From the NCBI GenBank assembly GCA_964523565.1, contig CAZGAK010000001.1:3867-67866 (forward strand): a stretch of DNA of 64,000 nucleotides, written 5' to 3'. Every line of letters starts with the position of its first letter. Positions within the stretch are counted from its first letter, which is position 1. The stretch comes from an uncultured Syntrophaceae bacterium. GTDB lineage: Bacteria; Desulfobacterota; Syntrophia; Syntrophales; UBA6807. Shown here in pieces: positions 2,959-53,700 of this stretch. Both the position numbers and the translations under genes were made by a program. Below the pieces are notes generated by a model. The model had not been told where the DNA came from. It worked only from the letters and a program-made list of their open reading frames with translations, and ran no database searches.

Positions 2959-3127
2959 AAGTGGTAAGTGAAAAGTATCTGAATGTCAAATTCCAAAGCT
3001 CAAATGCCAAATTAAATCTAAATTTAAAAAACCAAGAGTTATTTTTGTAATTTGGACTTAGGATTTTGGAATTATATTTAAGACAAGACAGGCTTAAATG
3101 TAACTTCTCGAAAAGTAGGGATAATAT

Positions 3128-3212
3128 CTCAAAAAACAGGAGCACTATAAAAGGCTCACGCCTAAATTCCTTATTTGGAGTTTACCCATAAGGGTTTTAC
3201 CCTGATTTATTG
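3128..3212 (+). repeat. Repeat family 2 (85 bp)
   Basis: CTCAAAAAACAGGAGCACTATAAAAGGCTCACGCCTAAATTCCTTATTTGGAGTTTACCCATAAGGGTTTTACCCTGATTTATTG. A second copy lies at 37694-37810. Confidence 0.8.
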
Positions 3213-3250
3213 AGAAGATACGCTTAAACTAATTAAGGTATCTATATTAA

Positions 3251-4858: not shown

Positions 4859-6037
4859 ATGATCGGAATTTCTAAATTATACTGTGGTGGCGTTGAACCT
4901 TCGGATGTCCTCCGTTACGGAGCGGAATCGGGGAAACTCCCCTCCCATCTCCTCCAGTTTTCAAAGGATAAACGTCCCGTCGTGGTATGGAACGCGACAA
5001 GGAGATGCAACTTACAATGCATACACTGCTATTCCAGTTCCCAGAATGTTAAATATGGTGATGAGTTAAATACGGATGAAGGTAAAAGATTGATATCCGA
5101 TCTTGCCTCGTTTGGCAGCCCTGTCATCCTGTTTTCCGGGGGAGAACCCCTGTTGAGAAGAGACCTGCCCGAACTTGTGCAATTTGCCGTAGATAAGGAA
5201 ATGCGGGCAGTCATATCGACAAACGGTACACTCATTACGAAGGAAAAGGCCGCAATTTTTAGTAAAATCGGTCTTTCCTACGTTGGTGTGAGTATTGATG
5301 GCATGAAAGAAACGCATGATCTGTTCAGGGGGGTCAATGGGGCATATGATGCTACTCTTCGAGGGATCAGGAACTGCCAGGATGCGGGGATCAAAGTAGG
5401 GGTGCGTTTTACCATAACGGGAAAAAATTATTCTGAAATCCCTGCAATTTTTGACTTCATTGAAAAAGAAAACATACCCCGGGCATGCTTCTATCATCTT
5501 GTTTATTCGGGCCGCGGTTCCGCCCTGATCGAAGAGGATTTATCCCACACTGAAACGCGGAAAGTTGTCGATGCAATAATGGACAGAACACGTGATCTCT
5601 TTGAAAGGGGTATATCCAAAGAAATACTTACTGTGGACAACCATGCCGATGGTCCCTATATTTATCTGCGCCTGCTTAAGGAAGATCCGAAGAGGGCGGA
5701 AGAGGTTTTGGAACTTCTCAAAATGAATGAGGGAAACAATTCAGGGAGAGGAATCGGTTGTGTAAGCTGGGATGGTGAGGTGTATGCAGACCAGTTCTGG
5801 AGAAACATCTCTTTTGGAAATGTCAGGAAACGCCCCTTCAGTAAAATCTGGCTGGACACCTCCAATGAATTGATGGCACAGTTAAAGGATAAAAAGTCTC
5901 ATGTGAAGGGAAGATGTGCCACATGCCGCTGGCTCGACGTATGCGGAGGAAATTTCCGGACAAGAGCCGAGGCCGTTGCCGGTGATATCTGGGCTCCTGA
6001 TCCCGCATGTTATCTGATGGATGGAGAAATAGGCTAA
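4859..6037 (+). CDS. ahbC: Radical SAM/SPASM enzyme of the NirJ family, probably AhbC (Fe-coproporphyrin III synthase, NirJ2 type)
   Basis: CNLQCIHCY radical SAM cluster motif and a C-terminal Cys-rich auxiliary-cluster region, CATCRWLDVCGGNFRTRA. The N-terminus ISKLYCGGVEPSDVLRYG is typical of the NirJ2 type, and the gene lies in the heme cluster. Assigning this gene rather than its paralog as AhbC relies on memory of family N-termini. Confidence 0.65.
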   Translation: MIGISKLYCGGVEPSDVLRYGAESGKLPSHLLQFSKDKRPVVVWNATRRCNLQCIHCYSSSQNVKYGDELNTDEGKRLISDLASFGSPVILFSGGEPLLRRDLPELVQFAVDKEMRAVISTNGTLITKEKAAIFSKIGLSYVGVSIDGMKETHDLFRGVNGAYDATLRGIRNCQDAGIKVGVRFTITGKNYSEIPAIFDFIEKENIPRACFYHLVYSGRGSALIEEDLSHTETRKVVDAIMDRTRDLFERGISKEILTVDNHADGPYIYLRLLKEDPKRAEEVLELLKMNEGNNSGRGIGCVSWDGEVYADQFWRNISFGNVRKRPFSKIWLDTSNELMAQLKDKKSHVKGRCATCRWLDVCGGNFRTRAEAVAGDIWAPDPACYLMDGEIG

Positions 6038-14335: not shown

Positions 14336-14469
14336 TTAGATTCTTTATTCTCAACAACCGAGTCCTTTGAGCAGATATTGAAAGGCGAAAGGCTGAAGGC
14401 TAAGGGCTGAAGGAAAAACCTTTAGCCCTTGGTCCTCATTGCTCAGTCCTTGCGGCTTTGCCGCATTAG
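14336..14469 (+). repeat. Modular repeat family 1, beta core
   Basis: TTAGATTCTTTATTCTCAACAAC..., a heptad-built beta core, then GCGGCTTTGCCGCATTAG. It is nearly identical to the reverse complement of 25251-25398. Confidence 0.9.
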
Positions 14470-14491
14470 ATTGTTGATCCTCTCGCAATGT

Positions 14492-21841: not shown

Positions 21842-22044
21842 TTAGAGTCTTTATTCACAACAACTGCGTTTTTTGCGCAGATGCTGGCGGAAAATAAATC
21901 CGAAATTCGAATATCGAAATACGAAACAAATTCGAATATCAAATAACAAAATTTCGAAACAGTTTTGGACATTCGAGTTTAGGGTTTTGATATTGTTTCG
22001 AATTTCGTACTTCGGATTTCGAATTTGCAGCTTTGCTGCCTTAG
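21842..22044 (+). repeat. Modular repeat family 1, gamma core (flip orientation)
   Basis: TTAGAGTCTTTATTCACAACAACTGCGTTTTTTGCGCAGATG, then an AT-rich palindromic gamma core, then GCAGCTTTGCTGCCTTAG. Confidence 0.9.
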
Positions 22045-23399: not shown

Positions 23400-25254
23400 T
23401 AAATTAGCCCAATATGACCCTGGTGAATTCAGGAGGAAGTTTAGGGTATTGATATGGTTGGTACTCTTTGCATTTGTTTTTCTCGTTGCCAAAATGTGGT
23501 ATCTCCAGGTAATAAAGGGAGAGGAATTAATTCAGCGATCCAAGAACAACAGGATTCGCCTTCAGGAAACAAAACCATTAAGAGGCTTGATTCTGGATAC
23601 GCGCGGGAAAGTCCTGGTAGATAATCAACCGTCCTTTGACATTTCAATCATTCCAGAAGTAGCAAAAAATGTGGAAGGTGTTATCAAAAGGCTGGCCTGT
23701 GAATATGGCGAGAATGAAATAGAACTCTATAACAATTTTTCATCATCAAAGCACAGGAAACCTTTCGTTCCGATTAAGCTTGAAAAAAATATTGGAAGAG
23801 ATAAGTTAGCCGTAGTTGAGACAAACTCTTTGGATTTGCCCGGCGTCGTCGTTGATGTTGTGCCTGTGAGAAAGTATATTTATGGTGAGATGATGGCTCA
23901 TATCCTTGGTTATGTGAGTGAGATTAGTACTGTTGACCTGGGCAGGGATTTGTACGGTGAATACAAGCCCGGTGATATTGTCGGTAAATCAGGCATTGAA
24001 AAATGGGTAGACAGATATTTAAAGGGTGAAAGCGGGGGAGAACAGATAGAGGTAAATGTTAACGGTAGAAAATTGAATGTCCTGGGGAAGGTTGAATCCG
24101 TTCCCGGATACAATGTCATGCTAACCATCGATGCCGATCTTCAAAGGATTTGCTGGGATGCCTTTCAGGAAAAGGCGGGCACCGTGATCATGATGGACCC
24201 TCGAGACGGTTCTATACTGGCCATGATAAATAAACCTTCTTTTGATCCAAATCTTTTTAACCGGGGCATATCAGGCGAGGATTGGAACAAACTTTTAAAT
24301 AACCCACTCAGTCCCATGCAGAATAAGGCTATTTCCGGGCAATACCCCCCCGGTTCCACATATAAATTGATCGTGGCTGCTGCCGCTCTTGAAGAGGGCC
24401 TGGTAACCCCTCACACAAGGTATCTTTGTGATGGTACGTATAAGATGGGTAACCGGACATTCAGGTGTTGGAAAAAGTATGGCCATGGTAATGTCAGTTT
24501 ACACCGTGCTATTGTAGAGTCCTGTGACGTATATTTTTACAATCTGGGAGCACAAATCGGCGTTGATAAATTGGCACAGTATGCACGGAAGTTTGGGTTA
24601 GGATCGAAAGCGGGTGTGGAGCTTTCCGGAGAGAAAAGCGGCTTGATACCAACAAAGGAGTGGAAACTGAAAAGGTTGAATAAACACTGGCAGATGGGCG
24701 AGACGATTTCATTATCTATAGGTCAGGGGTTTATTTTGTTGACTCCTTTACAACTTATTAGAACCTACTGTGCCCTGGCGAATGATGGTGTTCTATATAA
24801 ACCGAGACTTATAAAAAGAATTATGACGGAACAGGGGCAGATCATTAAGGAATTCCCTCCTGAAAAGGAGCCTCTTATACCTGTCAGTAAAAAAAATATT
24901 GAGATATTAAACCTTGCATTATGGGGAGCTGTAAACGAAGATCATGGTACGGGACTGGCTGTGAGAAGAAGGGGGAAGGATGTCTGTGGGAAGACAGGTA
25001 CTGCGCAAGTCATAGCAATGCCTCAGGATAAGAAAGATAGTGATATAGAAAACATTCCGTATAAATATAGAGATCACGCCCTTTTCGTTTGTTTCGCGCC
25101 GTATAAAGATCCTGAAGTAGCAGTAGTAGTGATTGTAGAACATGGAGGTCATGGGGGATCTGCTGCCGCTCCCATTTCGAGAAAGATTATTGACGGGTAT
25201 TTTGAAATCAAAGAGAGGAGAAACAGCCTCCAGTCTCGTGAAGTACAAGGCTAA
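23383..25254 (+). CDS. mrdA: Penicillin-binding protein 2 (elongasome transpeptidase)
   Basis: Contains STYK (GSTYKLI), SCD-type (SxN-equivalent) and KTGTAQ motifs. I prefer ATG 23383 (MTEKNSKL...) to the track start at 23326. The stop codon TAA at 25252-25254 lies inside a repeat arm. Confidence 0.9.
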   Translation: MTEKNSKLAQYDPGEFRRKFRVLIWLVLFAFVFLVAKMWYLQVIKGEELIQRSKNNRIRLQETKPLRGLILDTRGKVLVDNQPSFDISIIPEVAKNVEGVIKRLACEYGENEIELYNNFSSSKHRKPFVPIKLEKNIGRDKLAVVETNSLDLPGVVVDVVPVRKYIYGEMMAHILGYVSEISTVDLGRDLYGEYKPGDIVGKSGIEKWVDRYLKGESGGEQIEVNVNGRKLNVLGKVESVPGYNVMLTIDADLQRICWDAFQEKAGTVIMMDPRDGSILAMINKPSFDPNLFNRGISGEDWNKLLNNPLSPMQNKAISGQYPPGSTYKLIVAAAALEEGLVTPHTRYLCDGTYKMGNRTFRCWKKYGHGNVSLHRAIVESCDVYFYNLGAQIGVDKLAQYARKFGLGSKAGVELSGEKSGLIPTKEWKLKRLNKHWQMGETISLSIGQGFILLTPLQLIRTYCALANDGVLYKPRLIKRIMTEQGQIIKEFPPEKEPLIPVSKKNIEILNLALWGAVNEDHGTGLAVRRRGKDVCGKTGTAQVIAMPQDKKDSDIENIPYKYRDHALFVCFAPYKDPEVAVVVIVEHGGHGGSAAAPISRKIIDGYFEIKERRNSLQSREVQG

Positions 25255-25398
25255 GGCGGCAAAGCCGCAAGGGCTGAGCAATGAGCAATGAGCAATGAGG
25301 ACCAAGGGCTAAAGGTTTTTCCTTCAGCCCTTAGCCTTCAGCCTTTCGCCTTTCAATATCTGCGCAAAGAACGCGGTTGTTGAGAATAGAGATTCTAA
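25251..25398 (-). repeat. Modular repeat family 1, beta core, inverted orientation
   Basis: CTAAGGCGGCAAAGCCGC...CTGCGCAAAGAACGCGGTTGTTGAGAATAGAGATTCTAA. It contains the mrdA stop codon. Confidence 0.9.
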
Positions 25399-25434
25399 TA
25401 AGTACCTTAATTGTAAAGTTCTTGCAAAAATGGC

Positions 25435-25573
25435 AAAAGAATTTGGCTGTAACTTTGCAGACTTGGAAACGTAGGGCAGGGCTTTAGCCCTGCATAAAGC
25501 CCAATGCAAGGCTAAAGCCTTGCCCTACATGCAAGAGGTCAGCACCTCTTTGGTTACGGATTTGCCGCCTTAG
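25435..25573 (+). repeat. Modular repeat family 1, alpha core, left arm missing
   Basis: Carries the alpha core with a 58 nt palindrome (25471-25528) identical to that at 607-664, plus the right arm ...GGATTTGCCGCCTTAG. It ends 10 nt before the rodA ATG. Confidence 0.85.
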
Positions 25574-25583
25574 GTAATATAAA

Positions 25584-31512: not shown

Positions 31513-31529
31513 TTAAATTCTTAATTCTT

Positions 31530-31682
31530 AAATTTGATGGTTTCGTAAAAAGTCAAAAACTCGCTAATATGTCATTCCCGCGAAAGCGGGAATCCAGTAA
31601 TTACACGCAGTTATAGATTCCCGATCAGATCGGGAATGACAAAACGGCAAAAACTCCGACTTTTTACGAACTTGTCAAATTT
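31530..31682 (+). mobile_element. 153 bp MITE-like structured repeat (family 3), complete copy with terminal inverted repeats
   Basis: The TIRs are AAATTTGATGGTTTCGTAAAAAGTC... and ...GACTTTTTACGAACTTGTCAAATTT. Internal hairpins are ATTCCCGC-GAAA-GCGGGAAT and ATTCCCGAT-CAG-ATCGGGAAT. A second, truncated copy lies at 49010-49122. Confidence 0.8.
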
Positions 31683-33634: not shown

Positions 33635-33685
33635 CGGATTTTCCTCAGGAAAGAAAGACTCTGTTTTGGAAAAAATCGAATGATT

Positions 33686-33722
33686 CAAGCCAGGGAGGTT
33701 TCACTTTCCTGGCTTGTTTTTT
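33686..33722 (+). terminator. Rho-independent terminator after atpC
   Basis: A 9 bp stem, CAAGCCAGG (33686-33694) with CCTGGCTTG (33708-33716), followed by TTTTTT. Confidence 0.75.
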
Positions 33723-33737
33723 AGTTGTATAGACATT

Positions 33738-33931
33738 ATATTCTTTATTCTCGACAACTGCGTTTTTTGCGCAGATGTTGGCGGAAAATAAATCCGAAGT
33801 ACGAAATTCGAAACAATATCAAAATCTTAAACTCGAATGTCCAAAACTGTTTCGAAAATTTGTTATTTGACTTCGACGTGAGCTCAGTCGAACGATATTC
33901 GGATTTCGGATTTGCGGCTTTGCCGCTTTAG
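33738..33931 (+). repeat. Modular repeat family 1, gamma core (flop orientation)
   Basis: The left arm ATTCTTTATTCTCGACAACTGCGTTTTTTGCGCAGATG and right arm GCGGCTTTGCCGCTTTAG are in the same orientation as 21842-22044. However, the 79 nt central segment 33790-33868 is the reverse complement of 21941-22019. Confidence 0.9.
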
Positions 33932-33941
33932 GAGTTTAATC

Positions 33942-35420
33942 ATGGTGCGAGCAAAGGGGTTCTTGTCAGGTCTTTTTATAGTTGCTTTGTTTTGTACTCT
34001 ATTTTTGGATCCAGGTGTTGCTTACTGTGCCGCCGAAGAGGCCTCACATCATGGAGGTAATATAGGAGAAATATTATCGGCCTGGACAGTGATTCCTTTT
34101 GTCGGTATTTTACTGTCCATAGCTTTGCTTCCTTTGCTTATGCCTCACTTCTGGCATAATCACTTCGGTAAGATTTCGGCATTCTGGGCGTTGCTGTTTG
34201 CGATTCCGTTTCTCTATGTTTATCATTATGTGGCATTATACGAAATTCTGCACATCTATCTAATTGATTATTTCCCGTTTATCATTCTTCTCTGGGGCCT
34301 CTTTACCGTTGCGGGAGGAATCGTGGTCGGTGGTTCAATAAAGGGGACCCCGGTTGTCAACACGATTATGTTATTGATAGGAACGATATTGGCCTCCTGG
34401 GTAGGAACGACGGGAGCAGCCATGGTTATGATACGTCCTCTTTTAAGGGCAAACAAGAACAGGGTAAACAAAGTACATGTCGTGTGCTTTTTTATATTTC
34501 TTGTGGCCAATATCGGGGGTTCGCTCACACCGCTTGGCGATCCGCCGCTATTTCTTGGATTTCTCCATAATGTTCCGTTTTTCTGGGTTACGACAGCTAT
34601 CCTCCCACATATGTTGTTAACGTCGTTGATACTGTTGGTTCTGTTTTTTGCCGTTGACACATTTTACTATAATAAAGAGAAAGATGAGTTGAAAAAGATA
34701 GGGCCAATGGAACAAGTTCCCATCAGGATTCAGGGTGTGCATAATTTCATTTTTCTGGCGGGTATTGTCGTCCTCGTTCTCATAAGCGGTTATTGGAAAG
34801 CGGGACATTTCAGTGTAATGGGTATTCACATGACGTATCAGAATCTCCTGCGGGATGTTGGAATTATCATTATGGGAACACTCTCTCTCCTGTTAACCTC
34901 CAAGAGTCTTCGGGAAGAAAACGAATTCAGCTGGTTTCCGATAATGGAAGTGGCCAAACTTTTTGCCGGCATTTTTATGACGATTATTCCTTGCCTGGCA
35001 ATCCTGAAAGCTGGAAGTAACGGTGCCATGGCCGGTCTTGTAGCTGTCGTGAAAGAGCCGTTTCATTATTTCTGGGTAGCCGGCACACTCTCCTCTTTCC
35101 TTGATAATGCGCCTACCTATCTCACCTTCTTTAACCTTGCTCTGGGCAAACTCGGCTTAACAGAGGCAATGGTTCCGGCTGCGCTGGCGGCAAAAGCGGC
35201 GACGGCAAATCCTGTGTTTATCAGTTATCTGAAAGCAATATCAGCAGGTGCGGTCTTTATGGGCGCCAATACCTATATCGGCAATGCGCCGAATTTCATG
35301 GTTAAATCTATTGCTGAAGAAGCGGGAATTAATATGCCGAGTTTTTTCGGTTATATGTTTAAATATTCAATTCCTATTCTTATTCCCATATTTGTTGTTG
35401 TAACTTTTGTATTCTTTTAG
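33942..35420 (+). CDS. Ion transporter of the ArsB/NhaD permease superfamily (putative Na+/H+ antiporter)
   Basis: Polytopic membrane protein of about 490 aa resembling NhaD/citrate-transporter-type permeases. I prefer ATG 33942, 10 nt after AGGAG; the track start at 33912 lies inside a repeat. The stop codon TAG at 35418-35420 lies in a repeat arm. Confidence 0.55.
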   Translation: MVRAKGFLSGLFIVALFCTLFLDPGVAYCAAEEASHHGGNIGEILSAWTVIPFVGILLSIALLPLLMPHFWHNHFGKISAFWALLFAIPFLYVYHYVALYEILHIYLIDYFPFIILLWGLFTVAGGIVVGGSIKGTPVVNTIMLLIGTILASWVGTTGAAMVMIRPLLRANKNRVNKVHVVCFFIFLVANIGGSLTPLGDPPLFLGFLHNVPFFWVTTAILPHMLLTSLILLVLFFAVDTFYYNKEKDELKKIGPMEQVPIRIQGVHNFIFLAGIVVLVLISGYWKAGHFSVMGIHMTYQNLLRDVGIIIMGTLSLLLTSKSLREENEFSWFPIMEVAKLFAGIFMTIIPCLAILKAGSNGAMAGLVAVVKEPFHYFWVAGTLSSFLDNAPTYLTFFNLALGKLGLTEAMVPAALAAKAATANPVFISYLKAISAGAVFMGANTYIGNAPNFMVKSIAEEAGINMPSFFGYMFKYSIPILIPIFVVVTFVFF

Positions 35421-35624
35421 ATTCTTTATTCTCAACAACTGCGTTTTTTGCGCAGATGTTGGTATCAGCTTATGCGAATAAGACAAAGAATTCTGGTTGC
35501 ACCTTTGCTGCCTTGGAAACGTAGGGCAGGGCTTTAGCCCTGCGTAAAGCCCAATGCAAGGCTAAAGCCTTGCCCTACATGCAAGAGGCCAACACCTCTT
35601 TGGTTGCGGCTTTGCCGCCTCAGG
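35417..35624 (+). repeat. Modular repeat family 1, alpha core, full length
   Basis: TTAGATTCTTTATTCTCAACAACTGCGTTTTTTGCGCAGATG, then the alpha core (palindrome 35521-35578, one substitution), then GCGGCTTTGCCGCCTCAG. Confidence 0.9.
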
Positions 35625-35648
35625 GATATAATGACGGGAGAATGAGAA

Positions 35649-36266: not shown

Positions 36267-36427
36267 CTAAGGCGGCAAAGCCGCAAGGACTGAGCAACGA
36301 GCAATGAGGACTGAGAACTAAAGGCTAAAGGTTTTTCCTTGATCCTTTGTCCTTGTACCTTGCACCTTTTCACTGCTGACACTAAAATCTGCGCAAAAAA
36401 TGCAGTTGTTGAGAATAAAGAATCTAA
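36267..36427 (-). repeat. Modular repeat family 1, delta core, inverted orientation, full length
   Basis: CTAAGGCGGCAAAGCCGC..., then a heptad-built delta core, then ...CTGCGCAAAAAATGCAGTTGTTGAGAATAAAGAATCTAA. It contains the stop codon of the speD-speE fusion. Confidence 0.9.
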
Positions 36428-37512
36428 TCCTTTAACCTTGAGATATGTGCCGAAGCAAATATCCACGGCGTGCAGAAAGACTGGATATTCGTTTTTGAGA
36501 ATTTAACATTAATGAAAGCCCGGCTGAGGATTTTTTCTGACATAATAAGTGTATCCTTGTCATATTCGGAACAGCACTGAGACGTTATCATGCCATTGGG
36601 ATTGAGGCAGTCTTTAATTTTTGCGAAGAGATCTTCCAGGTACAGCTCGCGATCCATATTGATAAACGTTTCAGGATGCATGGTTAAATCATAGATAATT
36701 GCATCAAAACGCCTGTCAGTATTTAAGAAATTATTTACATCATCGTTTATAATCTCTACCCGCGGATCATCGAACGCATCATGACAGATACACTGTAGAT
36801 ATTTCCTGGAAGCGTTTATAACTTCTTCGTCTATATCGATGAGTGTAACCTTGCCGGGGTTGTATTTCAAAAGTTCATAAAGGACCCCCCCGTCTCCACC
36901 GCCCAGGATTGCTACATTTTCTAAAGGATTTTTTGCTTCAACAAGAGGTGATACCATGCTCTGGTTGTAAAGATGAGCATCATATTCGGCAATCTGCAGA
37001 TCATTATTCAAAAACAGCAGCTTACCGAAAATTTCATTTTCTATGATGTCTATCTGCTGATATTTTGACATCTTGCTGAAAATTGCTTTTTCGATGTGGT
37101 ACCGTATGTCGAATCCGACCGTATCGGAAACGTCGGTTATCCAATTGGTTTCTGACACTTCGATTGGGTTTCCCCGGATAATTTCGGCTGTCCTCGTTGT
37201 AGTCGGTTTAAATTTATCCTTCAGATAATGTAACAGATTATTCGTTACCTCCTTGTCGGGAGAACAGGTATATATATCCACAGAAGCGTGACGCGCTTCG
37301 GGGTATGTATGGATGGCAACATGGGATTCACTGATGACTGCTATGGATGTGACACCGATGGGATCGTAGCAATGACTGTTGATAGCTACAAGAGATAGTC
37401 CGCATTCTCTGATACCATTACGCAGAATGTTTTCGATGGCCTCTTTATCGTTTAAAATATCTCTGGAACAGTTGTGAAATTCCGCTACGATTTGCATCCC
37501 GATTGGCTTCAT
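36424..37512 (-). CDS. speD-speE: Fusion of S-adenosylmethionine decarboxylase proenzyme and an aminopropyltransferase (spermidine synthase-like)
   Basis: The N-terminal roughly 115 aa is class-1 AdoMetDC with the self-processing site context VISESHVAIHTYPE. The C-terminal roughly 240 aa has the spermidine synthase fold motifs YQQIDIIE, ILGGGDGGVLYELLKY, IDIDEEVI and DPRVEIINDD. Confidence 0.8.
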   Translation of the reverse strand: MKPIGMQIVAEFHNCSRDILNDKEAIENILRNGIRECGLSLVAINSHCYDPIGVTSIAVISESHVAIHTYPEARHASVDIYTCSPDKEVTNNLLHYLKDKFKPTTTRTAEIIRGNPIEVSETNWITDVSDTVGFDIRYHIEKAIFSKMSKYQQIDIIENEIFGKLLFLNNDLQIAEYDAHLYNQSMVSPLVEAKNPLENVAILGGGDGGVLYELLKYNPGKVTLIDIDEEVINASRKYLQCICHDAFDDPRVEIINDDVNNFLNTDRRFDAIIYDLTMHPETFINMDRELYLEDLFAKIKDCLNPNGMITSQCCSEYDKDTLIMSEKILSRAFINVKFSKTNIQSFCTPWIFASAHISRLKD

Positions 37513-37525
37513 GGCAAAATAAACT

Positions 37526-37658
37526 TTCTTTATAAAGGTACAAGGTACAAGGACAAAGGATCAAGGACAAAGGACAAAGGATCAAGGAAAAACCTTTAGC
37601 CTTTAGTTCTCAGTCCTCATTGCTCGTTGCTCAGCCCTTTGCGGCTTTGCCGCATTAG
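37526..37658 (+). repeat. Modular repeat family 1, delta core, left arm reduced to TTCTTTAT
   Basis: AGGTACA AGGTACA AGGACAA AGGATCA AGGACAA AGGACAA AGGATCA AGG..., ending GCGGCTTTGCCGCATTAG. Confidence 0.85.
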
Positions 37659-37693
37659 TCCCTTAAGCGAGAAATTAAATTTTCTTGTAACAG

Positions 37694-37810
37694 CTCAAAA
37701 AACAGGGGCATCATAAAAGGCTCACGCCTGAATTCCTTATTTGGAGTTTACCCGTAAGGGTTATACACTTATTTGGAGTTTACCCGTAAGGGTTTTACCG
37801 TGATTTATTG
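37694..37810 (+). repeat. Repeat family 2 (117 bp) with an internal 32 bp tandem duplication
   Basis: Same sequence as 3128-3212 with a few substitutions. CTTATTTGGAGTTTACCCGTAAGGGTT(A/T)TAC(A/C) is present twice in tandem. Confidence 0.8.
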
Positions 37811-37826
37811 GGCTGATTCATTTTCT

Positions 37827-37945
37827 TTCTTTATAGAGGTACAAGGTACAAGGACAAAGGATCAAGGAAAAACCTTCAGCCTTTAGCCTTTAGTTCTCAG
37901 TCCTCATTGCTCATTGCTCAGCCCTTTGCGGCTTTGCCGCCTCAG
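37827..37945 (+). repeat. Modular repeat family 1, delta core, left arm reduced to TTCTTTAT
   Basis: Same as 37526-37658 but with three fewer AGGNNCA heptads and one extra CCTTTAG unit. It ends GCGGCTTTGCCGCCTCAG. Confidence 0.85.
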
Positions 37946-37957
37946 GTGTCACTATAT

Positions 37958-37990
37958 AAAAAAAAGAGTATTCCATGTCAAGGGGAATAC
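37958..37990 (-). terminator. Rho-independent terminator downstream of the CDP-alcohol phosphatidyltransferase gene
   Basis: On the minus strand, GTATTCC and GGAATAC form a stem (plus-strand 37968-37974 and 37984-37990) followed by a T8 run. Confidence 0.6.
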
Positions 37991-39342: not shown

Positions 39343-40245
39343 GTGAAGGGACTGCCGGGACCTTGGATAGGCGCTATGGAAGCAACAATATTCACCGGAT
39401 GGGTGTATGACTTTTTAAAGCCGCACGCCATTGTCCTGAAGGTGGCTCATCCTGCGATGCTGAAGGCCATAACAGCCGCCAAGAAAAAGAACGATCGTGC
39501 CGATGCCGAGAAAATAGCCGATCTGTTACGGGTGAATCTTCTGCCTGAATGCCACATGCTTTCAGAAGAGATTCGTGAACTGCGACGGATATTACGGTAT
39601 CGCAACCATATTGTTCGGACGGCAGTTAAGATGCAGAACAAGATGTCGGGTCTGCTCATGGAAGTTGGTGTCAGCTACAGCAAGAAACGCTTGCACGGCA
39701 AGAAATACTTTCGTGAACTTCTAGAACGAGTCGATGAAATTCCCCCTTCCGTCAAGGAGCTTCTTCAGCTGAGTCGTTCAAGCTACGAGATGTTTCGCTC
39801 TTTCCAGAAGCGGCTTGTTGCAACGCTTCGCACCGACAGCCTGATACGTGATCGGGTACATCGTCTCATGACCATCCCCGGTGTAGGAGAGATAACGGCA
39901 CTGACCTGGGTATTGGAGATCGGCGATCCCGAACTATTATCATCCATTCGTAAGGCAATCAGCTACTGCGGGCTGTGCAGCGCACAAAAAGAATCGGCGG
40001 GCAAGGAGCAGCGAGGCCCCATCTCCAAGAAACGGAACAAACACCTGCAAACCATACTCATTGAAGCCGCAAAGCTTGCACCATACTGGAACGAGCAACT
40101 GGCCATTGTACATGAGCGGGAATCGAAGAAAGGAAACAAAAACAGGGCAACCCTTGCCGTTGCGAGAAAGCTTGTGGCTTACATGCTGGCTGTTGACAGG
40201 AAAGGGAGCGATTTCAAGCTTCCCTCAGAAACGCAAGCAGCCTGA
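39343..40245 (+). pseudogene. IS110-family (DEDD) transposase, 5'-truncated remnant
   Basis: Contains the second half of the DEDD domain (GAMEATIFTGW, KKNDRADAEKIADLL) and the Transposase_20 region (IPGVGEITALTWVLEIGD, SAGKEQRGPISKKRNKHL). The N-terminal GIDxxK block is absent. The frame stays open upstream to 39205 without a start or the missing motif. Confidence 0.7.
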
Positions 40246-41623: not shown

Positions 41624-41945
41624 AAATGCTATTCCGATTACTGCTTTCATTTTGTAAACGTATCCGACAGTTTTTTGCGATTTTTATGAAAATTTGCGGG
41701 GCATAAAAAGATAACTGCTTATATTAATTGACAGAACAGCCCAAAAAAGGCCGTAACAAAAAGTGTCGGCATGCTTTACAGCTTTCGGCTTGTTTTACAA
41801 ATCGAACATTAAAACTCTCATTGTTCTTTAAAAAAAAAGAAAAAAAGGGAAAAAAGGATTGAAGGATTGGAGGCTAAATCATAAATAAGTCGAAAGTGGA
41901 CCTCTTTCCCCCATTCTTTTCCAGTAGGGCCCGTTCCCCGAACGA

Positions 41946-43360
41946 AGTAATTCGGGGACGTTGTTGACTATGTTGACTTTCTATTTTTCCGATCTACTGA
42001 TAATTTTTGAGATGGCAGATGTTGATACTCCCAGTTGACGTGCTATCTCTGCAAATGGAATTCCATACTGTTCCGCTAAACTGATCGCTAACTTCGACCT
42101 TATCTTTGATATTGATCCCCTGCGGCTTCCGTATTTAAGTTCTTTAATATTAATGTTTTCCTGCTTGCATGCCTTTTCTATGAATTGCTCCACCTTTTTC
42201 AGGCGGTCTTGTCCCAAAAATTGATGTCTCACCTTTTGATCAACCTCTTGTAACAGATAATCGACGAATTCTCCGCCACCCAATATCCGCTCATCAGAAC
42301 TCGCACGCATTCCTGAAAATCGCATAGTCTTGACTTGAGTCCAACCGCCCATAGATCGAATCAAGCCTCCGCCAACTAACTCCGGCCGTCTGCCTTGATT
42401 AATTCCTTCTTGAATAAATTCCCGGTAGCAACTTCTGGCCACTCCTTCTGTTTTGCCAAACCACCTTAATATGTAATCACGATCTTGCCAATCGTTTGTT
42501 CTTTTACCCATTACAGTCGCATGCCCACACCAGCGGTAGATGTCCAGTTCCGATAAACTCTTCACAAGTTTTGCCCGCAGTGGATTTAAATGAATATAGC
42601 GGACTAACTCCTTAAAATAAACATCCTCTTCACAAATTATCGATTTAGAGTAATTCGGAGTAATTCGGGGACGTTGTTGACTATGTTGACTTTCTATTTT
42701 TCCGATCTACTGATAATTTTTGAGATGGCAGATGTTGATACTCCCAGTTGACGTGCTATCTCTGCAAATGGAATTCCATACTGTTCCGCTAAACTGATCG
42801 CTAACTTCGACCTTATCTTTGATATTGATCCCCTGCGGCTTCCGTATTTAAGTTCTTTAATATTAATGTTTTCCTGCTTGCATGCCTTTTCTATGAATTG
42901 CTCCACCTTTTTCAGGCGGTCTTGTCCCAAAAATTGATGTCTCACCTTTTGATCAACCTCTTGTAACAGATAATCGACGAATTCTCCGCCACCCAATATC
43001 CGCTCATCAGAACTCGCACGCATTCCTGAAAATCGCATAGTCTTGACTTGAGTCCAACCGCCCATAGATCGAATCAAGCCTCCGCCAACTAACTCCGGCC
43101 GTCTGCCTTGATTAATTCCTTCTTGAATAAATTCCCGGTAGCAACTTCTGGCCACTCCTTCTGTTTTGCCAAACCACCTTAATATGTAATCACGATCTTG
43201 CCAATCGTTTGTTCTTTTACCCATTACAGTCGCATGCCCACACCAGCGGTAGATGTCCAGTTCCGATAAACTCTTCACAAGTTTTGCCCGCAGTGGATTT
43301 AAATGAATATAGCGGACTAACTCCTTAAAATAAACATCCTCTTCACAAATTATCGATTTA
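41946..43360. repeat. Perfect tandem duplication, 2 x 702 bp joined by an 11 bp junction (period 713 bp)
   Basis: By my reading, 41946-42647 is identical base for base to 42659-43360. The junction GAGTAATTCGG (42648-42658) partly re-copies the first 10 nt of the unit. Confidence 0.85.
41981..42565 (-). pseudogene. Duplicated 3' fragment of the HUH/Y1 transposase-like gene, lacking the catalytic N-terminus
   Basis: The 194 aa translation is identical to the C-terminal 194 aa of the 42694-43665 product. There is no HUH motif. Confidence 0.75.
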
Positions 43361-43665
43361 TAACGATTTTGAAACAAATGACCGTGGCGACGATGGCGCC
43401 GGTTATAGGATAACGCATATCCGGTGAGTAGCCTCCTCATATAGAAGGATAGACCAGAAGAAGAGCTTTTCAACAATATGTGAGCATGATTAGACATCAA
43501 CGACCAGGCATAAATTGCCGTACCGGTATCAGAGGCGATTTGTCCCATTCGGGAGACAAAATCTTCTCGATCAGTTGTATCATCGACGATCCTGCGTTTT
43601 TCAATCCCCCGCACGATCACATGATGCAGCGTTCCAGGGGCATCAAGCCGGGCTTGTCGTGGCAT
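42694..43665 (-). CDS. HUH (Y1) transposase-like protein (IS200/RAYT-related) with a C-terminal DnaA-domain-IV-like HTH
   Basis: N-terminus GTLHHVIVRGIEKR and HUH motif SNHAHILL, with a catalytic Tyr context VRYIHLNPLRA. The C-terminus RSKLAISLAEQYGIPFAEIARQLGVSTSAISKI is a helix-turn-helix. Confidence 0.7.
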   Translation of the reverse strand: MPRQARLDAPGTLHHVIVRGIEKRRIVDDTTDREDFVSRMGQIASDTGTAIYAWSLMSNHAHILLKSSSSGLSFYMRRLLTGYALSYNRRHRRHGHLFQNRYKSIICEEDVYFKELVRYIHLNPLRAKLVKSLSELDIYRWCGHATVMGKRTNDWQDRDYILRWFGKTEGVARSCYREFIQEGINQGRRPELVGGGLIRSMGGWTQVKTMRFSGMRASSDERILGGGEFVDYLLQEVDQKVRHQFLGQDRLKKVEQFIEKACKQENINIKELKYGSRRGSISKIRSKLAISLAEQYGIPFAEIARQLGVSTSAISKIISRSEK

Positions 43666-48956: not shown

Positions 48957-49009
48957 TATTCTAAAGAAAGACGAGGGGTCTTCACTTTTGACAGTTTTAC
49001 TTTCTTTTC

Positions 49010-49122
49010 AAATTTGACGGTATCGTAAAAAGTCAAAAATACGCGAACTGGTCATTCCCGCGAAAGCGGGAATCCAGTGATTACACGTAGTTATGGATTC
49101 CCGATCAGGTCGGGAATGACAA
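49010..49122 (+). mobile_element. MITE-like repeat family 3, 3'-truncated copy
   Basis: Shares the left TIR and both internal hairpins with 31530-31682. It diverges after GGGAATGACAAA, so the right TIR is missing. Confidence 0.75.
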
Positions 49123-49500
49123 AGAAGAAGGGGAATAATGTAATGGGGTCGGACCAAGATAATCGCCTGTAATCCATAAAATTGTCCCTGAAAACAGGGC
49201 CAATTTTACCCTTAGAGGCACCATTTCAGCATCAAAAAGGGCGTCCTAAGAAATTCTATGCGGAAAAAAGATCGCGCCTGAAAGATGCTCTCACACCTTG
49301 AACCTTATACCTCATACCTGTTTTTTTACAGTGCCCAGCGCCTATTGTTGTTCACCATATAAACTGCGGATTACGTAAAAGACCTGTAAGATAGTTTTGG
49401 ATTTACTGAAAAGGCAAAATCAATAGCACTATCCATTTACACTCATCAGTGAAATGAGTTATAAACACTACAGTTTGATGTCTTCTACCATAGGGAATTT

Positions 49501-50730
49501 ATGAAAATATTACACACCTCCGACTGGCATATCGGCCGCACTTTATACGGCCGCAAGCGATACGCGGAATTCGAGGCATTCCTGAACTGGCTGGCCGGTC
49601 TTATTGATGATGAAGACATAGATGTCCTGCTTGTGGCAGGGGACGTGTTTGACAACAGCACCCCAAGCAATCGTGCACAGGAACTCTATTACCGGTTCCT
49701 CTGCCGTGTAGCGGCCTCTCCAAAACGCCATGTGGTGGTGACGGCAGGGAATCATGATTCGCCGTCTTTCTTGAATGCGCCAAAGGAACTCCTGAAATTT
49801 CTGAATGTCCATGTCGTAGGGAGCGCATCCGACTCTCCGGATGACGAACTGATCGTGCTTACCGGGCCCGATCAGGAGCCCCTGCTCATTGTCTGTGCCG
49901 TCCCGTATCTCAGAGACCGTGATATACGCACGGCTGAAGCCGGAGAGAGCGTCGAGGACAAGGAGAGGAAGATCGTTGAGGGAATCAGGACTCATTACCG
50001 GATGGTCTGTGAATTGGCCGAACAAAAACGCGCCATGCTGGATAATTCTGTTCCGATTGTCGCAATGGGACATTTGTTTGCCGCGGGCGGCGAGACCGTT
50101 GACGGTGACGGGGTGCGTGAACTGTATATCGGCTCTCTTGCGCAAGTAAGAAGGGATGTGTTCCCCGAATGTATTGACTACGTTGCACTCGGGCATCTTC
50201 ATATTCCTCAAAGGGTTGGCGGTTCGGACTTCATACGCTACTGCGGTTCTCCCCTGCCCATTGGCTTCGGGGAGGCGCAGCAGGAAAAGGGCATGGTTCT
50301 TGTGGAGTTTTCGAGTAATGCACCCAATGTTACCAATATTCCCGTACCCATATTCCAGGAATTGAAGATTCTGCACGGGGATTGGCAAACCATTGCCCGG
50401 AAGATCGACATACTGAAGTCCGAAGGAAGCAATGCCTGGCTGGAGATAGTATATGATGGAGACGAGATAGCCGGTGATTTACGCGAGCGATTGGATGAGG
50501 CAATCGAAAAAACCGGCCTGGAGATCCTCCGCGTTAAGAACAATCGTGTGCTGGAACGGGCTATGAGTGGGATGGATGCGGAAGAAACACTCGATGATCT
50601 GGACGTAACCGACGTGTTCACGCGCTGCCTGGAATCGCATGAAATACCAGAGGATCAGCGCCCGGCGCTTTTGAATGCATATCAGGAAATCATTGTAGCT
50701 CTGAACGAAGCGGACCCGATGGCTGAATAG
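49501..50730 (+). CDS. sbcD: Exonuclease SbcD (Mre11-type nuclease)
   Basis: MKILHTSDWHIG, VAGDVFD, GNHDS and GHLH phosphoesterase motifs. Confidence 0.9.
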   Translation: MKILHTSDWHIGRTLYGRKRYAEFEAFLNWLAGLIDDEDIDVLLVAGDVFDNSTPSNRAQELYYRFLCRVAASPKRHVVVTAGNHDSPSFLNAPKELLKFLNVHVVGSASDSPDDELIVLTGPDQEPLLIVCAVPYLRDRDIRTAEAGESVEDKERKIVEGIRTHYRMVCELAEQKRAMLDNSVPIVAMGHLFAAGGETVDGDGVRELYIGSLAQVRRDVFPECIDYVALGHLHIPQRVGGSDFIRYCGSPLPIGFGEAQQEKGMVLVEFSSNAPNVTNIPVPIFQELKILHGDWQTIARKIDILKSEGSNAWLEIVYDGDEIAGDLRERLDEAIEKTGLEILRVKNNRVLERAMSGMDAEETLDDLDVTDVFTRCLESHEIPEDQRPALLNAYQEIIVALNEADPMAE

Positions 50731-50741
50731 GAGAACATGGC

Positions 50742-53700
50742 ATGAGGATACTTGGTGTTCGATTTAAGAATCTTAATTCTCTCATCGGGGAATGGAATAT
50801 CGATTTCACCCACCCGGAGTATTTGTCCGACGGCATATTCGCCATCACCGGCCCTACCGGCGCAGGAAAGACGACCATTATGGACGCTATATGCCTCGGG
50901 CTTTACGGAAGGACGCCCCGCCTTGACAAGGTTACGAAAAGCAGCAACGAGATCATGTCGCGCCAGACAGGCGAATGCTTTGCGGAAGTTGCATTTGAGA
51001 CACAGAAGGGCCGTTACCGTTGCCACTGGAGCCAGCACCGTGCCCGGAGAAGGTCTGATGGCGAGTTACAACAGGCAAAGCATGAAATAGCCGATGCAGA
51101 AAACGAGACAGTCCTGGAATCAAGAATAACCCAGGTTAATGAATTTATCGAGAAGGCCACGGGTATGGACTTTGAGCGTTTTACCCGTTCGATGCTGCTC
51201 GCCCAGGGCGGATTTGCAGCCTTTCTTCAGGCGTCCCCCGATAAGCGAGCCCCCATCCTTGAGCAAATTACCGGCACCGAAATCTACAGTCGTATATCCG
51301 TAAAAGTGCATGAACGCAGTAGAGAAGAACGTGAAAAGCTGGAATTGCTGCAATCTGAACTGAAAGGAATCCAAGTATTAAGCGCAGATGAGGAAAGGGA
51401 CCTGCAAACGGGCCTGAAGGAAGCGCAGTTACATGAAGCGGAGCGGAGCACTCAGTTCGACAGCCTTCGAAAGGCTGCTGCCTGGCTTGAAACCGTGACT
51501 GCGCTGGGAAAGGGGATTGGCGATCTGGATAAACTCACGGAGGATCTTGAGAAACGTTCTCAGGTGTTCGCGCCGGAAAGAATACGGCTGGAAAAATCAC
51601 GGAGGGCTCTCGGTCTGGAGGGAGATTACCGGGGAGTGGTCGCCTTACGGGATCTGCAGAAAAATGAGACAAAGGAACTCAATGACGCTCTCGCGGCCCT
51701 GCCGCTTAAGAATAAGGCCTGTGAAGATGCGGTGACTATCAAAAAGACCGCTGAAACCGGTCTTGATGAAACACGAAAACGGCAGCAGTCCGAAGCGGAT
51801 GTCATCAAAAAGGTTCGCGAACTCGATGCCAGACTGAGCGAGCAGAAAAAGCAGATAGAGGAGAAGGATAAGTCGATATCATTGGCGGAGAAGCAGGGCA
51901 AAGCGTATACCGTGAATATCGATAAGGCTTCGCAGGCCCTGCAAAAATCACAGGATGGCCTGAAAGCCGTCCAGGATTACCAGACAAAGCAAGCCGTCGA
52001 TGCCGCGCTTTTGACCGACCTGGCTGCAATCTCCAGGGTATTCATCTCACTTCGCGATCGTGAAGAAAGGAATATCAAGGTTCAAGAAACGCGTGCCGCA
52101 GCTGCCAGGGAAAAAGAGGCTGCCATTGCCGCGCACAAAAAGATAGAGGCCGATCACGGGAAATCCCACAAGGAATTCGAGAAGCATCAAGGCGACCTGA
52201 AGGTTCTGACTGACAAGGCTGCATCCATCCTCAAGGGACGTGAAATAGGCCGGTGGCACCAGGATCATAGTGTCCTGAAAGAACGCGAGGGTCTCCTGAG
52301 GCAGGCGGGTGACACCATTGAGCGGAGGAACACGACATCCGCAGCATTGGACAAACTGAACACGAATCTTGAAGTATTGAAGGCCGGTCATGAGAAGCTC
52401 TCCGGGGAGATCACAACCTGTACCGAGAAAAAAGCGCTCCTGGAGGGAACTGTTGCAACTATGGAAACACAGGTGACCCTCCTGAGCCGCATTCGGGACC
52501 TTGAGGAGGAAAGGATGCGGCTTGAAGACGGCATGCCATGCCCCCTGTGTGGTGCCCTCGAGCATCCCTATGCAAAAGGCAATGTACCTGAATTAAACAA
52601 GGTGGAAAAAGAATTGAAGGATGCCAGGGTCACGTTCAAAAAGGTATCTGATGAGTTGAGCAAGCTGGAAACGGAGCACGCCAGGATGCTGGTGGAAATC
52701 GGGCATGTTGAAAAAGACAAGGATGAAAAGAAGGCTGCGTTGGAAGTCGATGATAAGCAATGCACCGACAATCTGTTAAAACTGAATATCGCGGCAGGTA
52801 CTGAAGAACGGGCCGGGAAAGTACGCGAAGCGATTGCAGACGCTCAATCGAAGATCGCTGAAATATCCGGCATTATCGTTGCCGCCGAAGAATTAAACCG
52901 AAAGGAGAAGGCGTCGCACAAAAACCTGGAGAAGTTAAGGATGCTTCTGGAAAGCTCGGGCAAGGCCTTGCATGATGCCAGGCATAACGTTGATAAGGCC
53001 GGCCGTGAGCATGAGCGGCTGATTAAGGAGGACGAAGCGCTTGGCAAGGAGCTTGAGAAGGCCCGTGCAGATGCGCTGAAGGATGTTGAGCCCTTTGGTA
53101 TTAGACAGATACCATCAACCGATCTCGACACCATATTGAAAGACCTTACGGAACGCAGAGATATCTGGCAGGCAAAGCTCGACGAAAAAAACGAATTTGA
53201 GAAAAAGATCCATAGCCTGGAAGCCGGTATCGATAAGGACAAAGCCCTGTTGGCAAAGCTCGAACATGATCTAAAAACGAGCCGCAAGGATCGCGAGGGT
53301 CTGCTGCGGCAACATGCGTCCCTGGGTACTTCACGCCGCGAATTGTACGGTGAAAAGAATACCGACCAGGAGGAGAAACGCCTGGCTGACGCAGTGGATC
53401 AGGCAGGTAAGGTTTTAGAAAAAGCACGGGAAGAACACGCCAAGGTGGAAAAAGCACTCAACTCACTGAAAGAGAAAAGAGACGATCTGGAAAAAAAGAC
53501 AGGCAAACGGGCGATTGACCTGCTACAGGCGGAACAAAACCTGACTGAGCGAATAAAGAAAACCGGGTTTGGTGACGAAACCGACTATTTGTCTGCGTGC
53601 CTGAGCGAAGAAGAACGGGAAGGGCTCGCACAACAGGAAAAGGTTCTGATCAGGGAGAAAACGGAGCTGGACGCCCGCAAGAAGGATAAGTCGGCAGCCC

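Follow-up and report, generated by a model that had tools for sequence, protein, structure and literature searches.

Imperfect palindromes that exist as two reverse-complementary isomers, flip and flop, are familiar from the inverted terminal repeats of parvoviruses and from the telomeres of poxviruses, where the isomerism is confined to the palindrome. These palindromes lie at the ends of linear replicons, and the isomers arise by hairpin transfer in each round of replication and occur at a ratio of about 1:1. In bacteria, intergenic repeats with a modular or mosaic structure include the BOX elements of pneumococci (boxA-boxB-boxC) and the NIMEs of Neisseria. The BIMEs of E. coli are also modular intergenic repeats (PMC2817692). 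Correia elements (CREE), which are confined to Neisseria, have 26-bp terminal inverted repeats and a target duplication (PMC2649163). They carry promoter-like sequences, and according to section 4.1 of a review (PMC10969869, citing Elbeyioglu et al. 2017; see also PMC2649163), their core has been found inverted at a locus between strains. Furthermore, the TnpA transposase of IS608 recognises sub-terminal imperfect palindromes and cleaves at a distance from them (PMC3201880), and a group of hairpin-forming repeats, the REPINs, has been described (PMC3116915).

Here we describe a composite repeat from an uncultured Syntrophaceae bacterium (GTDB representative MAG CAZKGS01, GCA_964552105.1), a group for which we found no described repeats in the literature on Syntrophus or Syntrophaceae. 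The element shares some traits with each of the above systems. The analysis concerns a stretch of 64,000 nt, called the window in the following, and other contigs from JGI, ENA and Logan metagenomes.

Results

Two copies of a composite element with opposite cores

In this element, a left (L) arm, a core and a right (R) arm form a non-coding composite of about 200 nt. Copy 1 lies between mreB and mreC, and copy 2 lies upstream of a permease gene of the CitMHS_2 type. Their features are as follows.

21842-22044, plus strand: composite element copy 1, flip isomer, 203 nt, between mreB and mreC
21842-21845 and 22041-22044, plus strand: TTAG at both ends of copy 1, the second closing the R arm
21846-21895, plus strand: L arm, AGTCTTTATTCACAACAACTGCGTTTTTTGCGCAGATGCTGGCGGAAAAT, with five copies in the window (0 expected by chance), repeat family D4
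21864-21880, plus strand: L-arm hairpin CTGCG-N7-CGCAG, present in folds
21896-22026, plus strand: core in flip orientation, 131 nt, an imperfect palindrome of degenerate AAATNCG heptamers
21896-21936 and 21986-22026, plus strand: palindrome arms of the core (inverted-repeat pair I1, 41 nt, 78% complementary)
21937-21985, plus strand: asymmetric centre of the core, 49 nt
21941-22019, plus strand: 79-nt segment, a sub-part of the inverted core, compared below with 33790-33868
21966-21994, plus strand: sigma-70-like match TGGACA-17-GATATT in the asymmetric centre (pattern scan, 9/12, consensus match only)
22027-22044, plus strand: R arm, a GCAGC-TTT-GCTGC hairpin and then CTTAG, a form characteristic of flip copies
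33736-33931, plus strand: composite element copy 2, flop isomer, between atpC and the CitMHS permease gene
33740-33789, plus strand: L arm of copy 2, preceded by the TTAT with which this copy starts
33790-33913, plus strand: core of copy 2, flop orientation, 124 nt, without the first AAATTCG heptamer and with the right palindrome arm partly replaced
33871-33894, plus strand: mini-hairpin module CTTCGACGTGAGCTCAGTCGAACG, which replaces part (about 24 nt) of the right palindrome arm of copy 2
33914-33931, plus strand: R arm of copy 2

An earlier sequence-only reading had proposed that a 79-nt segment is inverted between these copies with about four mismatches, that both arms keep their orientation, and that the segment lies within a long imperfect palindrome; it had also named trivial self-complementarity, to be checked by formal alignment of the two loci, as what would overturn the proposal. 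The inversion, the constant arms and the enclosing palindrome were borne out, and self-complementarity does not explain them. In a gapless alignment, 21941-22019 and the reverse complement of 33790-33868 are identical at 76 of 79 positions, with three mismatches, as compared to 22/79 for the two segments in direct orientation. Since the segment matches its own reverse complement at merely 20 of 79 positions, the similarity reflects a true inversion, and the self-similarity of a palindrome is ruled out as its cause. A 30-mer from the centre of the segment occurs once on each strand of the window (0.00 occurrences expected by chance). The arms (left ...CAACTGCGTTTTTTGCGCAGATG..GGCGGAAAAT, right GCRGCTTTGCYGCCTTAG in both copies) have the same orientation in copy 1 and copy 2.

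The inverted unit extends over the whole core. Positions 21896-22019 of copy 1 are the gapless reverse complement of the intact flop core of L007/L020 (119/124 identical), and a direct alignment of the two cores requires many gaps. In heptamer register, the unit comprises 131 nt (21896-22026), over which copy 1 has three differences from the flop consensus. That the earlier reading recovered only 79 nt of this is due to copy 2, with its missing first heptamer and the replacement in its right arm. We judged this damage against intact 131-nt flop cores from contigs of other assemblies of the same organism, which were found by exact-protein look-ups. In the outer 21 nt, the inversion can again be read off the sequence, with 20 of 21 positions identical between 21896-21916 and the reverse complement of 33893-33913. 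With a complementarity of only 78%, the two palindrome arms can be identified as left or right, and both are inverted in full, up to the last informative positions, with breakpoints at the arm/core junction. Flop copies read GGCGGAAAAT and then AAATTCGAAATCCGAAGTACG...CGATATTCGAATTTCGGATTT before the GCGGC of the R arm, and flip copies read GGCGGAAAAT and then AAATCCGAAATTCGAATATCG...CGTACTTCGGATTTCGAATTT before GCAGC.

The mini-hairpin of copy 2 is absent from L007/L020, but other flop copies carry one at the same core position. It recurs in the flip copies L030 and L050, where it occupies the same position of the core and shares the core's inversion. By a four-gamete argument, its presence in both isomers means that inversion or exchange has recurred. 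The mini-hairpin apparently is a small repeat in itself, since it replaces part of the right core arm in several copies and is found in several tandem variants in L057 (at about 5800-5900).

The small hairpin of the R arm differs between the copies (22027-22039 and 33914-33926) by a compensatory double change, GCAGC-TTT-GCTGC as compared to the common GCGGC-TTT-GCCGC. L050 has a half-changed intermediate, GCAGC..GCCGC. The compensatory change hints at a structural constraint on this hairpin.

At the copy 2 locus, assemblies differ in what follows atpC and the first part of the element, with three different downstream genes: the CitMHS permease gene, efp (L006) and fumarase (L007). Compared with window positions 33635-33945, the switch point in L006 and L007 lies inside the repeat, and the divergent joins could represent either chimeric assembly or repeat-mediated rearrangement.

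A hairpin core with a sigma-70-like site

The core shows the periodicity of its AAATNCG heptamers (autocorrelation 0.54 at lag 7) and is predicted to fold end to end as a hairpin, with a minimum free energy as DNA of -24.0 kcal/mol (z -3.2), the other strand reaching -24.8 kcal/mol (z -3.7). The hairpin thus is equally stable in both orientations, such that inversion is structurally neutral. The core termini are perfect over 9 nt (AAATCCGAA/TTCGGATTT). A covariation test of the core hairpin returned 0 compensatory pairs, the copies being too similar to each other. Rfam gave no matches in the window at gathering thresholds, and permissive thresholds yielded only plant miRNA-precursor hairpins with 17-23 bits, as compared to cut-offs of 63-211.

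The sigma-70-like site of the core centre lies on the minus strand in copy 2 (33843-33815). The predicted promoter hence faces mreC in copy 1 (flip), and in copy 2 (flop) it faces away from the permease gene. The hexamers TGGACA and GATATT are nearly invariant across copies. Both isomers are found upstream of co-oriented genes, and in most such copies the core is in the flop state, with the putative promoter pointing away from the gene. From the sequence, orientation-dependent delivery of a promoter would be possible, but it is unsupported.

The composite inserts as a unit

Besides the five L arms, the window contains six R arms and altogether roughly ten composites, which is about one element per 6 kb. 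The same arms enclose unrelated cores, namely the TTCGAA-rich one described here, one of the GGGCAGGGCTTTAGCCC type and others that consist of AAGGNNN heptamers, and more types occur in related contigs. Composites with other cores that share the L and/or R arms are located at 503-716, 14336-14484, 25251-25399 (minus strand) and 25440-25580. Further ones lie at 35417-35630, 36267-36428 (minus strand) and 37524-37960, with cores that form multiple GGGCAGGGCTTTAGCCC hairpins or consist of AAGGNNN or GAGCAAT heptamers. In the region 25251-25580, two elements are arranged head to head, and an R arm contains the stop codon of the PBP2 gene. Some L arms have no R arm close by; these were considered as ends of a full-length insertion sequence but turned out to be degenerate or truncated copies. 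Neither a plasmid collection nor viral contigs contained matches to the element.

Two other repeats were noted in the window. One family (..AAAAGGCTCACGCCTAAATTCCTTATTTGGAGTTTACCCGTAAGGGTTTTACC..), partly in tandem, adjoins composites at 3122-3219 and 37688-37817 and follows the R arm in L037. The other, family D6, is a direct repeat pair of 124 nt with 87% identity (31520-31643 and 49000-49123).

Most insertions are in intergenic spacers. At about half of the flop loci, the right end (..TTAG) lies directly before a Shine-Dalgarno sequence of the GGAG type, 5-10 nt upstream of the start codon (for instance at 33927-33944 in the window and in L020, L021, L022 and L043). This placement suggests either a target preference for TTAG followed by GAG or that insertion between a promoter and a ribosome-binding site is tolerated.

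For copy 1, the insertion itself can be seen by comparison with a sister strain whose MreC falls into the same 90% protein cluster. In this strain (six assemblies, L059-L064), the mreB-mreC spacer measures 115 nt, as compared to 318 nt in the window strain, and the difference of 203 nt corresponds exactly to 21842-22044. The empty site reads ..GATGGTTAA/AATATGCC.. (..GGTTAA/AATATGCC..), with TTAA in place of the TTAG...TTAG of the filled site, which reads ..GAGTGATTAG/AGTCTTTATTC...GCTGCCTTAG/AATATACC.. and is found in the window, L002, L003, L065-L068 and L070. Sample ERZ27248954 contains the two alleles side by side (L003 filled, L062 empty). Since the whole 203 nt are absent from a co-occurring sister strain, the mreC copy must have been inserted as a ready-made flip composite, and an inversion in situ at this locus is ruled out. 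The composite thus inserts as a unit, at a TTAG/TTAA site. All copies in the window start after TTAG or TTAT and end in TTAG; together with the TTAA of the empty site, this fits either a 4-bp duplication or a target plus right-end cleavage site in the manner of IS200/IS605.

One orientation per locus

The sequence-only reading had also proposed a census of core orientations. We carried this out on public Syntrophaceae contigs, using species-representative genomes and JGI metagenomes (45 further loci) in addition to the contigs already mentioned and the window itself; this census favours copies with a match to a 22-base probe. It comprised 56 instances, 47 of them flop, eight flip and one ambiguous, the latter being a flop copy beside another element. 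Clustering by unique flanks gave about 30 locus groups, or about 31 loci after merged groups had been split, with about 26 flop loci and five flip loci. The flip loci are the mreC locus of the window, L015/L050 (in the prfA-prmC spacer), L030, L040 and L023. In either isomer, the core most often measures 131 nt.

At the mreC locus, which is flip in the window, seven other assemblies (L002, L003, L065-L068 and L070) have the same state and agree with the window in every base. The atpC-CitMHS locus is flop in the window, in L004, L008 and L009 and also in a diverged strain (L005/L018). Groups with multiple assemblies, all of them consensus assemblies, are uniform in orientation except for the deeply diverged pair L021/L023. 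Likewise, consensus assemblies of near-identical strains or of different samples never showed a locus in both states, although a minority orientation within a population would be hidden in such assemblies. Among orthologous pairs whose flanks are 90-97% identical, five of six have kept their orientation.

Flip copies share further characters. A C at core position 45 is present at 4/5 flip loci as compared to 1/25 flop loci (p=0.0009), and an R-arm hairpin beginning with GCAGC at 4/5 flip loci and 1/16 flop loci (p=0.004). Wherever the L arm of a flip copy could be read, it showed the variant GATGCTGG, and the breakpoints are identical throughout. As exceptions, the flip locus L015/L050 lacks C45, and the flop locus L022/L054 carries it. 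The shared derived markers in core and arms make the flip copies a sub-family by descent. Such a pattern is expected if one or a few inversions took place in a source copy that then multiplied as an entire composite, and not if cores were inserted in random orientation or switched at each locus. On this reading, each sub-family is represented once among the two copies of the window, flip at mreC and flop at atpC-CitMHS.

The single orthologous pair that differs in state deserves a closer look. L021/L029 (flop) and L023 (flip) share the insertion site, with 243 of 271 flanking positions identical, and their cores are gapless reverse complements (118/131). L023 is of the flip type from its L-arm variant, GATGCTGG, through the centre up to ..GATATTGTTTCG (..TTGTTTCG), and it carries the flip marker C45. 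Its last 26 nt of the right palindrome arm and its R arm are of the flop type. On the simplest reading of this sequence, a resident flop copy would have been partly converted by a flip copy, with the conversion tract of L023 ending in the shared TTGTTTCG. Template switching offers an alternative, and the pair could also reflect a genuine inversion in situ.

Transposase and nuclease genes in the window

The minus-strand gene at 42694-43665 encodes a Y1 protein of 323 amino acids, which begins with an IS200-like Y1_Tnp domain (Pfam, 6.7e-13) and has an HTH-like region toward its C-terminus. In NCBIfam, it matches the REP-associated tyrosine transposase (NF047646) best, with a score of 62 bits that falls short of the cut-off of 80. 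Inverted repeats (GGGACGTNGTTGAC) and a TCCCCGAA..TTCGGGGA hairpin flank the gene; they have no relation to the L and R arms and no dispersed copies in the 488 kb that were searched. A role of this RAYT-like transposase as the mobiliser of the composite is thus unsupported.

An exact tandem duplication of 713 nt (41943-42655 and 42656-43368) covers the 3′ two-thirds of the Y1 transposase gene and yields a second, N-terminally truncated open reading frame (41981-42565). It could be real or an assembly artefact.

An N-terminally truncated gene for an IS110-family, RNA-guided transposase lies at 39343-40245 on the plus strand (NF033542, 1.7e-49). A link between this copy and the composite was considered and rejected, since the IS110 flanks contain no composite element. 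Furthermore, genes for SbcD (Metallophos and SbcD_C domains) and an SbcC-like protein of 1223 amino acids (AAA_23 and SbcC Walker B) are found at 49501-54413 on the plus strand. SbcCD-type nucleases cleave long DNA hairpins and cruciforms, and their presence is noteworthy in a genome crowded with hairpin repeats.

Discussion

The core of this element is probably a hairpin cassette that travels within a mobile composite, and its flip and flop forms are then isomers that have become fixed by descent, as opposed to the states of a switching locus. The sequence-only reading had gone further and envisaged ongoing isomerisation, with recombination of the hairpin or cruciform across its own inverted arms. 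Active switching at these loci is not supported, since each locus has a single orientation in the assemblies, the mreC copy arrived already flipped and the flip state marks a lineage. Recombination across the inverted arms is ruled out as a general mechanism by the full inversion of both arms and by breakpoints at the arm/core junction, with L023 as the one copy that has an internal breakpoint. The reading had further stated that a fixed orientation per locus without any sign of exchange would speak against it. The fixed orientation was indeed found, as far as consensus assemblies go, and orientation within a locus gave no sign of exchange, but signs of sequence exchange between copies are present, in the chimeric L023 and in the mini-hairpin shared by both isomers.

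How the isomers came about can be sketched as follows. One or very few inversions in a source copy would have given rise to flip copies, which went on to spread as complete composites. Segments would later have been shuffled by gene conversion among copies, accounting for the chimera L023 and for the mini-hairpin in both isomers. The founding inversion appears to have comprised the hairpin in its entirety and to have broken at the hairpin base, within the terminal AAAT/ATTT, which may have served as microhomology. Most likely, replication would have switched templates at the base of the hairpin or cruciform and continued on the opposite strand. We prefer this to reciprocal recombination inside the imperfect arms, after which the outer segments of the arms should have kept their original orientation; only L023 shows this, in its right arm. 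As to movement of the composite, the architecture of its ends (sub-terminal hairpins, fixed tetranucleotide ends and no terminal inverted repeats) suggests, by analogy, single-strand mobilisation of the IS200/IS605 or REP-like type. We regard this as a lead and not as a finding.

One might instead suppose that the core is an independently mobile, palindromic MITE that has nested repeatedly, in either orientation, in a scaffold of L and R arms. Breakpoints exactly at the module junctions, a core length of 131 nt that is constant in both isomers, the perfect 9-nt core termini and the many different cores within the same arms all agree with this, as does the mini-hairpin in both isomers. We nevertheless consider it unlikely, because this type of core was never found outside the arms among the 56 instances, and neither a core-less L-R element (only the deletion derivative L033) nor a target-site duplication at the arm/core junction was found. 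Furthermore, the ratio of about 26:5 is far from 1:1, and the correlation of orientation with arm variants and an internal SNP is unexpected if cores are inserted at random. An assembly artefact, caused by mis-joining inside a palindromic repeat, is highly improbable. It is true that these repeats are frequent sites of contig breaks or of jumps to another locus (L001, L010 and L013 stop within the element, and L006 and L007 join atpC to other genes). However, the flip state at mreC recurs base for base in seven other assemblies from different assemblers and samples, and flip copies are found at five distinct loci with unique flanks on both sides.

A further possibility would be an actively invertible cassette, akin to an inverton, a Correia element or a cruciform flip/flop, that re-orients a sigma-70-like promoter in situ. 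In its favour, nearly invariant hexamers face mreC in the flip state and face away from the permease gene in the flop state, one orthologous locus does differ in orientation between lineages, and in-situ inversion of a Correia element in Neisseria is on record (section 4.1 of PMC10969869). We rate this reading as unlikely: neither near-identical strains nor different samples revealed a locus with both states, orientation is retained in five of six diverged orthologues, the mreC copy was in the flip state when it was inserted, and the flip state is a lineage marker. In addition, the copies found upstream of genes are mostly flop, their putative promoter facing the other way, a recombinase is not adjacent, and the promoter match is only 9/12. 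A related proposal, to which we likewise give little credence, is a structure-directed inversion of the whole core at the hairpin base, in which the isomer state would decide, through the outward sigma-70-like site of the asymmetric centre, whether a downstream operon (e.g., mreCD-pbp2-rodA) receives an extra promoter. Such an inversion could be carried out by a hairpin-recognising single-strand enzyme of the HUH type that accepts either strand, or it could result from template switching once a cruciform has been extruded. If this were true, the element would amount to a MITE-borne, slowly switching regulatory device in an uncultured anaerobe. If the promoter or the inversion reading were true, regulation of the Correia type would extend beyond Neisseria.

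Under the reading that we favour, isomers fixed by descent, the case offers a clean and checkable separation of an orientation polymorphism from an active switch, and the two isomers are a natural marker of sub-family history. What is new is a very abundant, undescribed repeat family of uncultured Syntrophaceae of the Antarctic-lake type, with constant ends and interchangeable hairpin cores, and a pair of filled and empty sites of the composite that was directly observed. There are practical consequences as well, in that such repeats fragment metagenome assemblies and can create chimeric joins. Elements that sit just before the ribosome-binding sites of housekeeping genes may furthermore shape 5′ untranslated regions. 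The case does not open a long-standing question.

Comparison with known systems

With viral terminal hairpins, the element shares two reverse-complement isomers that are confined to an imperfect palindrome. Unlike in these viruses, the palindrome is internal to the chromosome, the isomers occur at a ratio of about 5:1 and their state is heritable per locus. Invertons, on the other hand, are not a suitable category, since the neighbouring genes are mreB, mreC, atpC and the CitMHS gene, with no recombinase among them, and the sequence breaks where the palindrome ends on its outer side, with the imperfect arms inverted completely.

Its size of about 200 nt, the lack of coding capacity, multiple copies and the filled/empty polymorphism at mreB-mreC are MITE-like. 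However, classical terminal inverted repeats are absent from the ends of the 203-nt unit, as AGTCTTTATTC... and ...GCTGCCTTAG are not inverted repeats of each other, and inverted termini belong only to the internal core. This lack of terminal inverted repeats is shared with PATEs, which derive from IS200/IS605, and with REP/REPIN-RAYT systems, as are sub-terminal hairpins (here at a distance of 18 nt from the left end and of 5 nt from the right), a fixed tetranucleotide at the junction and a hairpin-forming body. In contrast to these systems, the L and R hairpins differ in sequence, and a cognate Y1/RAYT transposase gene flanked by L and R arms was not found, the Y1 gene of the window having unrelated ends.

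Like Correia elements, which are about 100-160 nt long, the composite is a non-coding intergenic repeat with a directional core between inverted termini, often just 5′ of genes. It differs from them in its non-palindromic L and R ends, in that the inverted piece is an internal cassette, and in that strain-to-strain switching was not seen. Its host, a Syntrophaceae MAG, and its sequence architecture place it outside the CREE family. With BOX, BIME and NIME repeats it has in common constant end modules, variable internal modules, a high intergenic copy number, hairpin potential and the lack of coding capacity. There is no sequence relationship to these repeats, and the variable module here is a long heptamer-repeat hairpin, one core type of which occurs in both orientations. 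Moreover, an insertion/empty-site polymorphism of the whole composite was directly observed in our case.

As the defining features of every named family fail to apply, the element is best filed as a new, undescribed, non-autonomous intergenic repeat. Its closest functional precedent is the Correia element, and its closest architectural precedents are modular repeats such as BOX, BIME and NIME.
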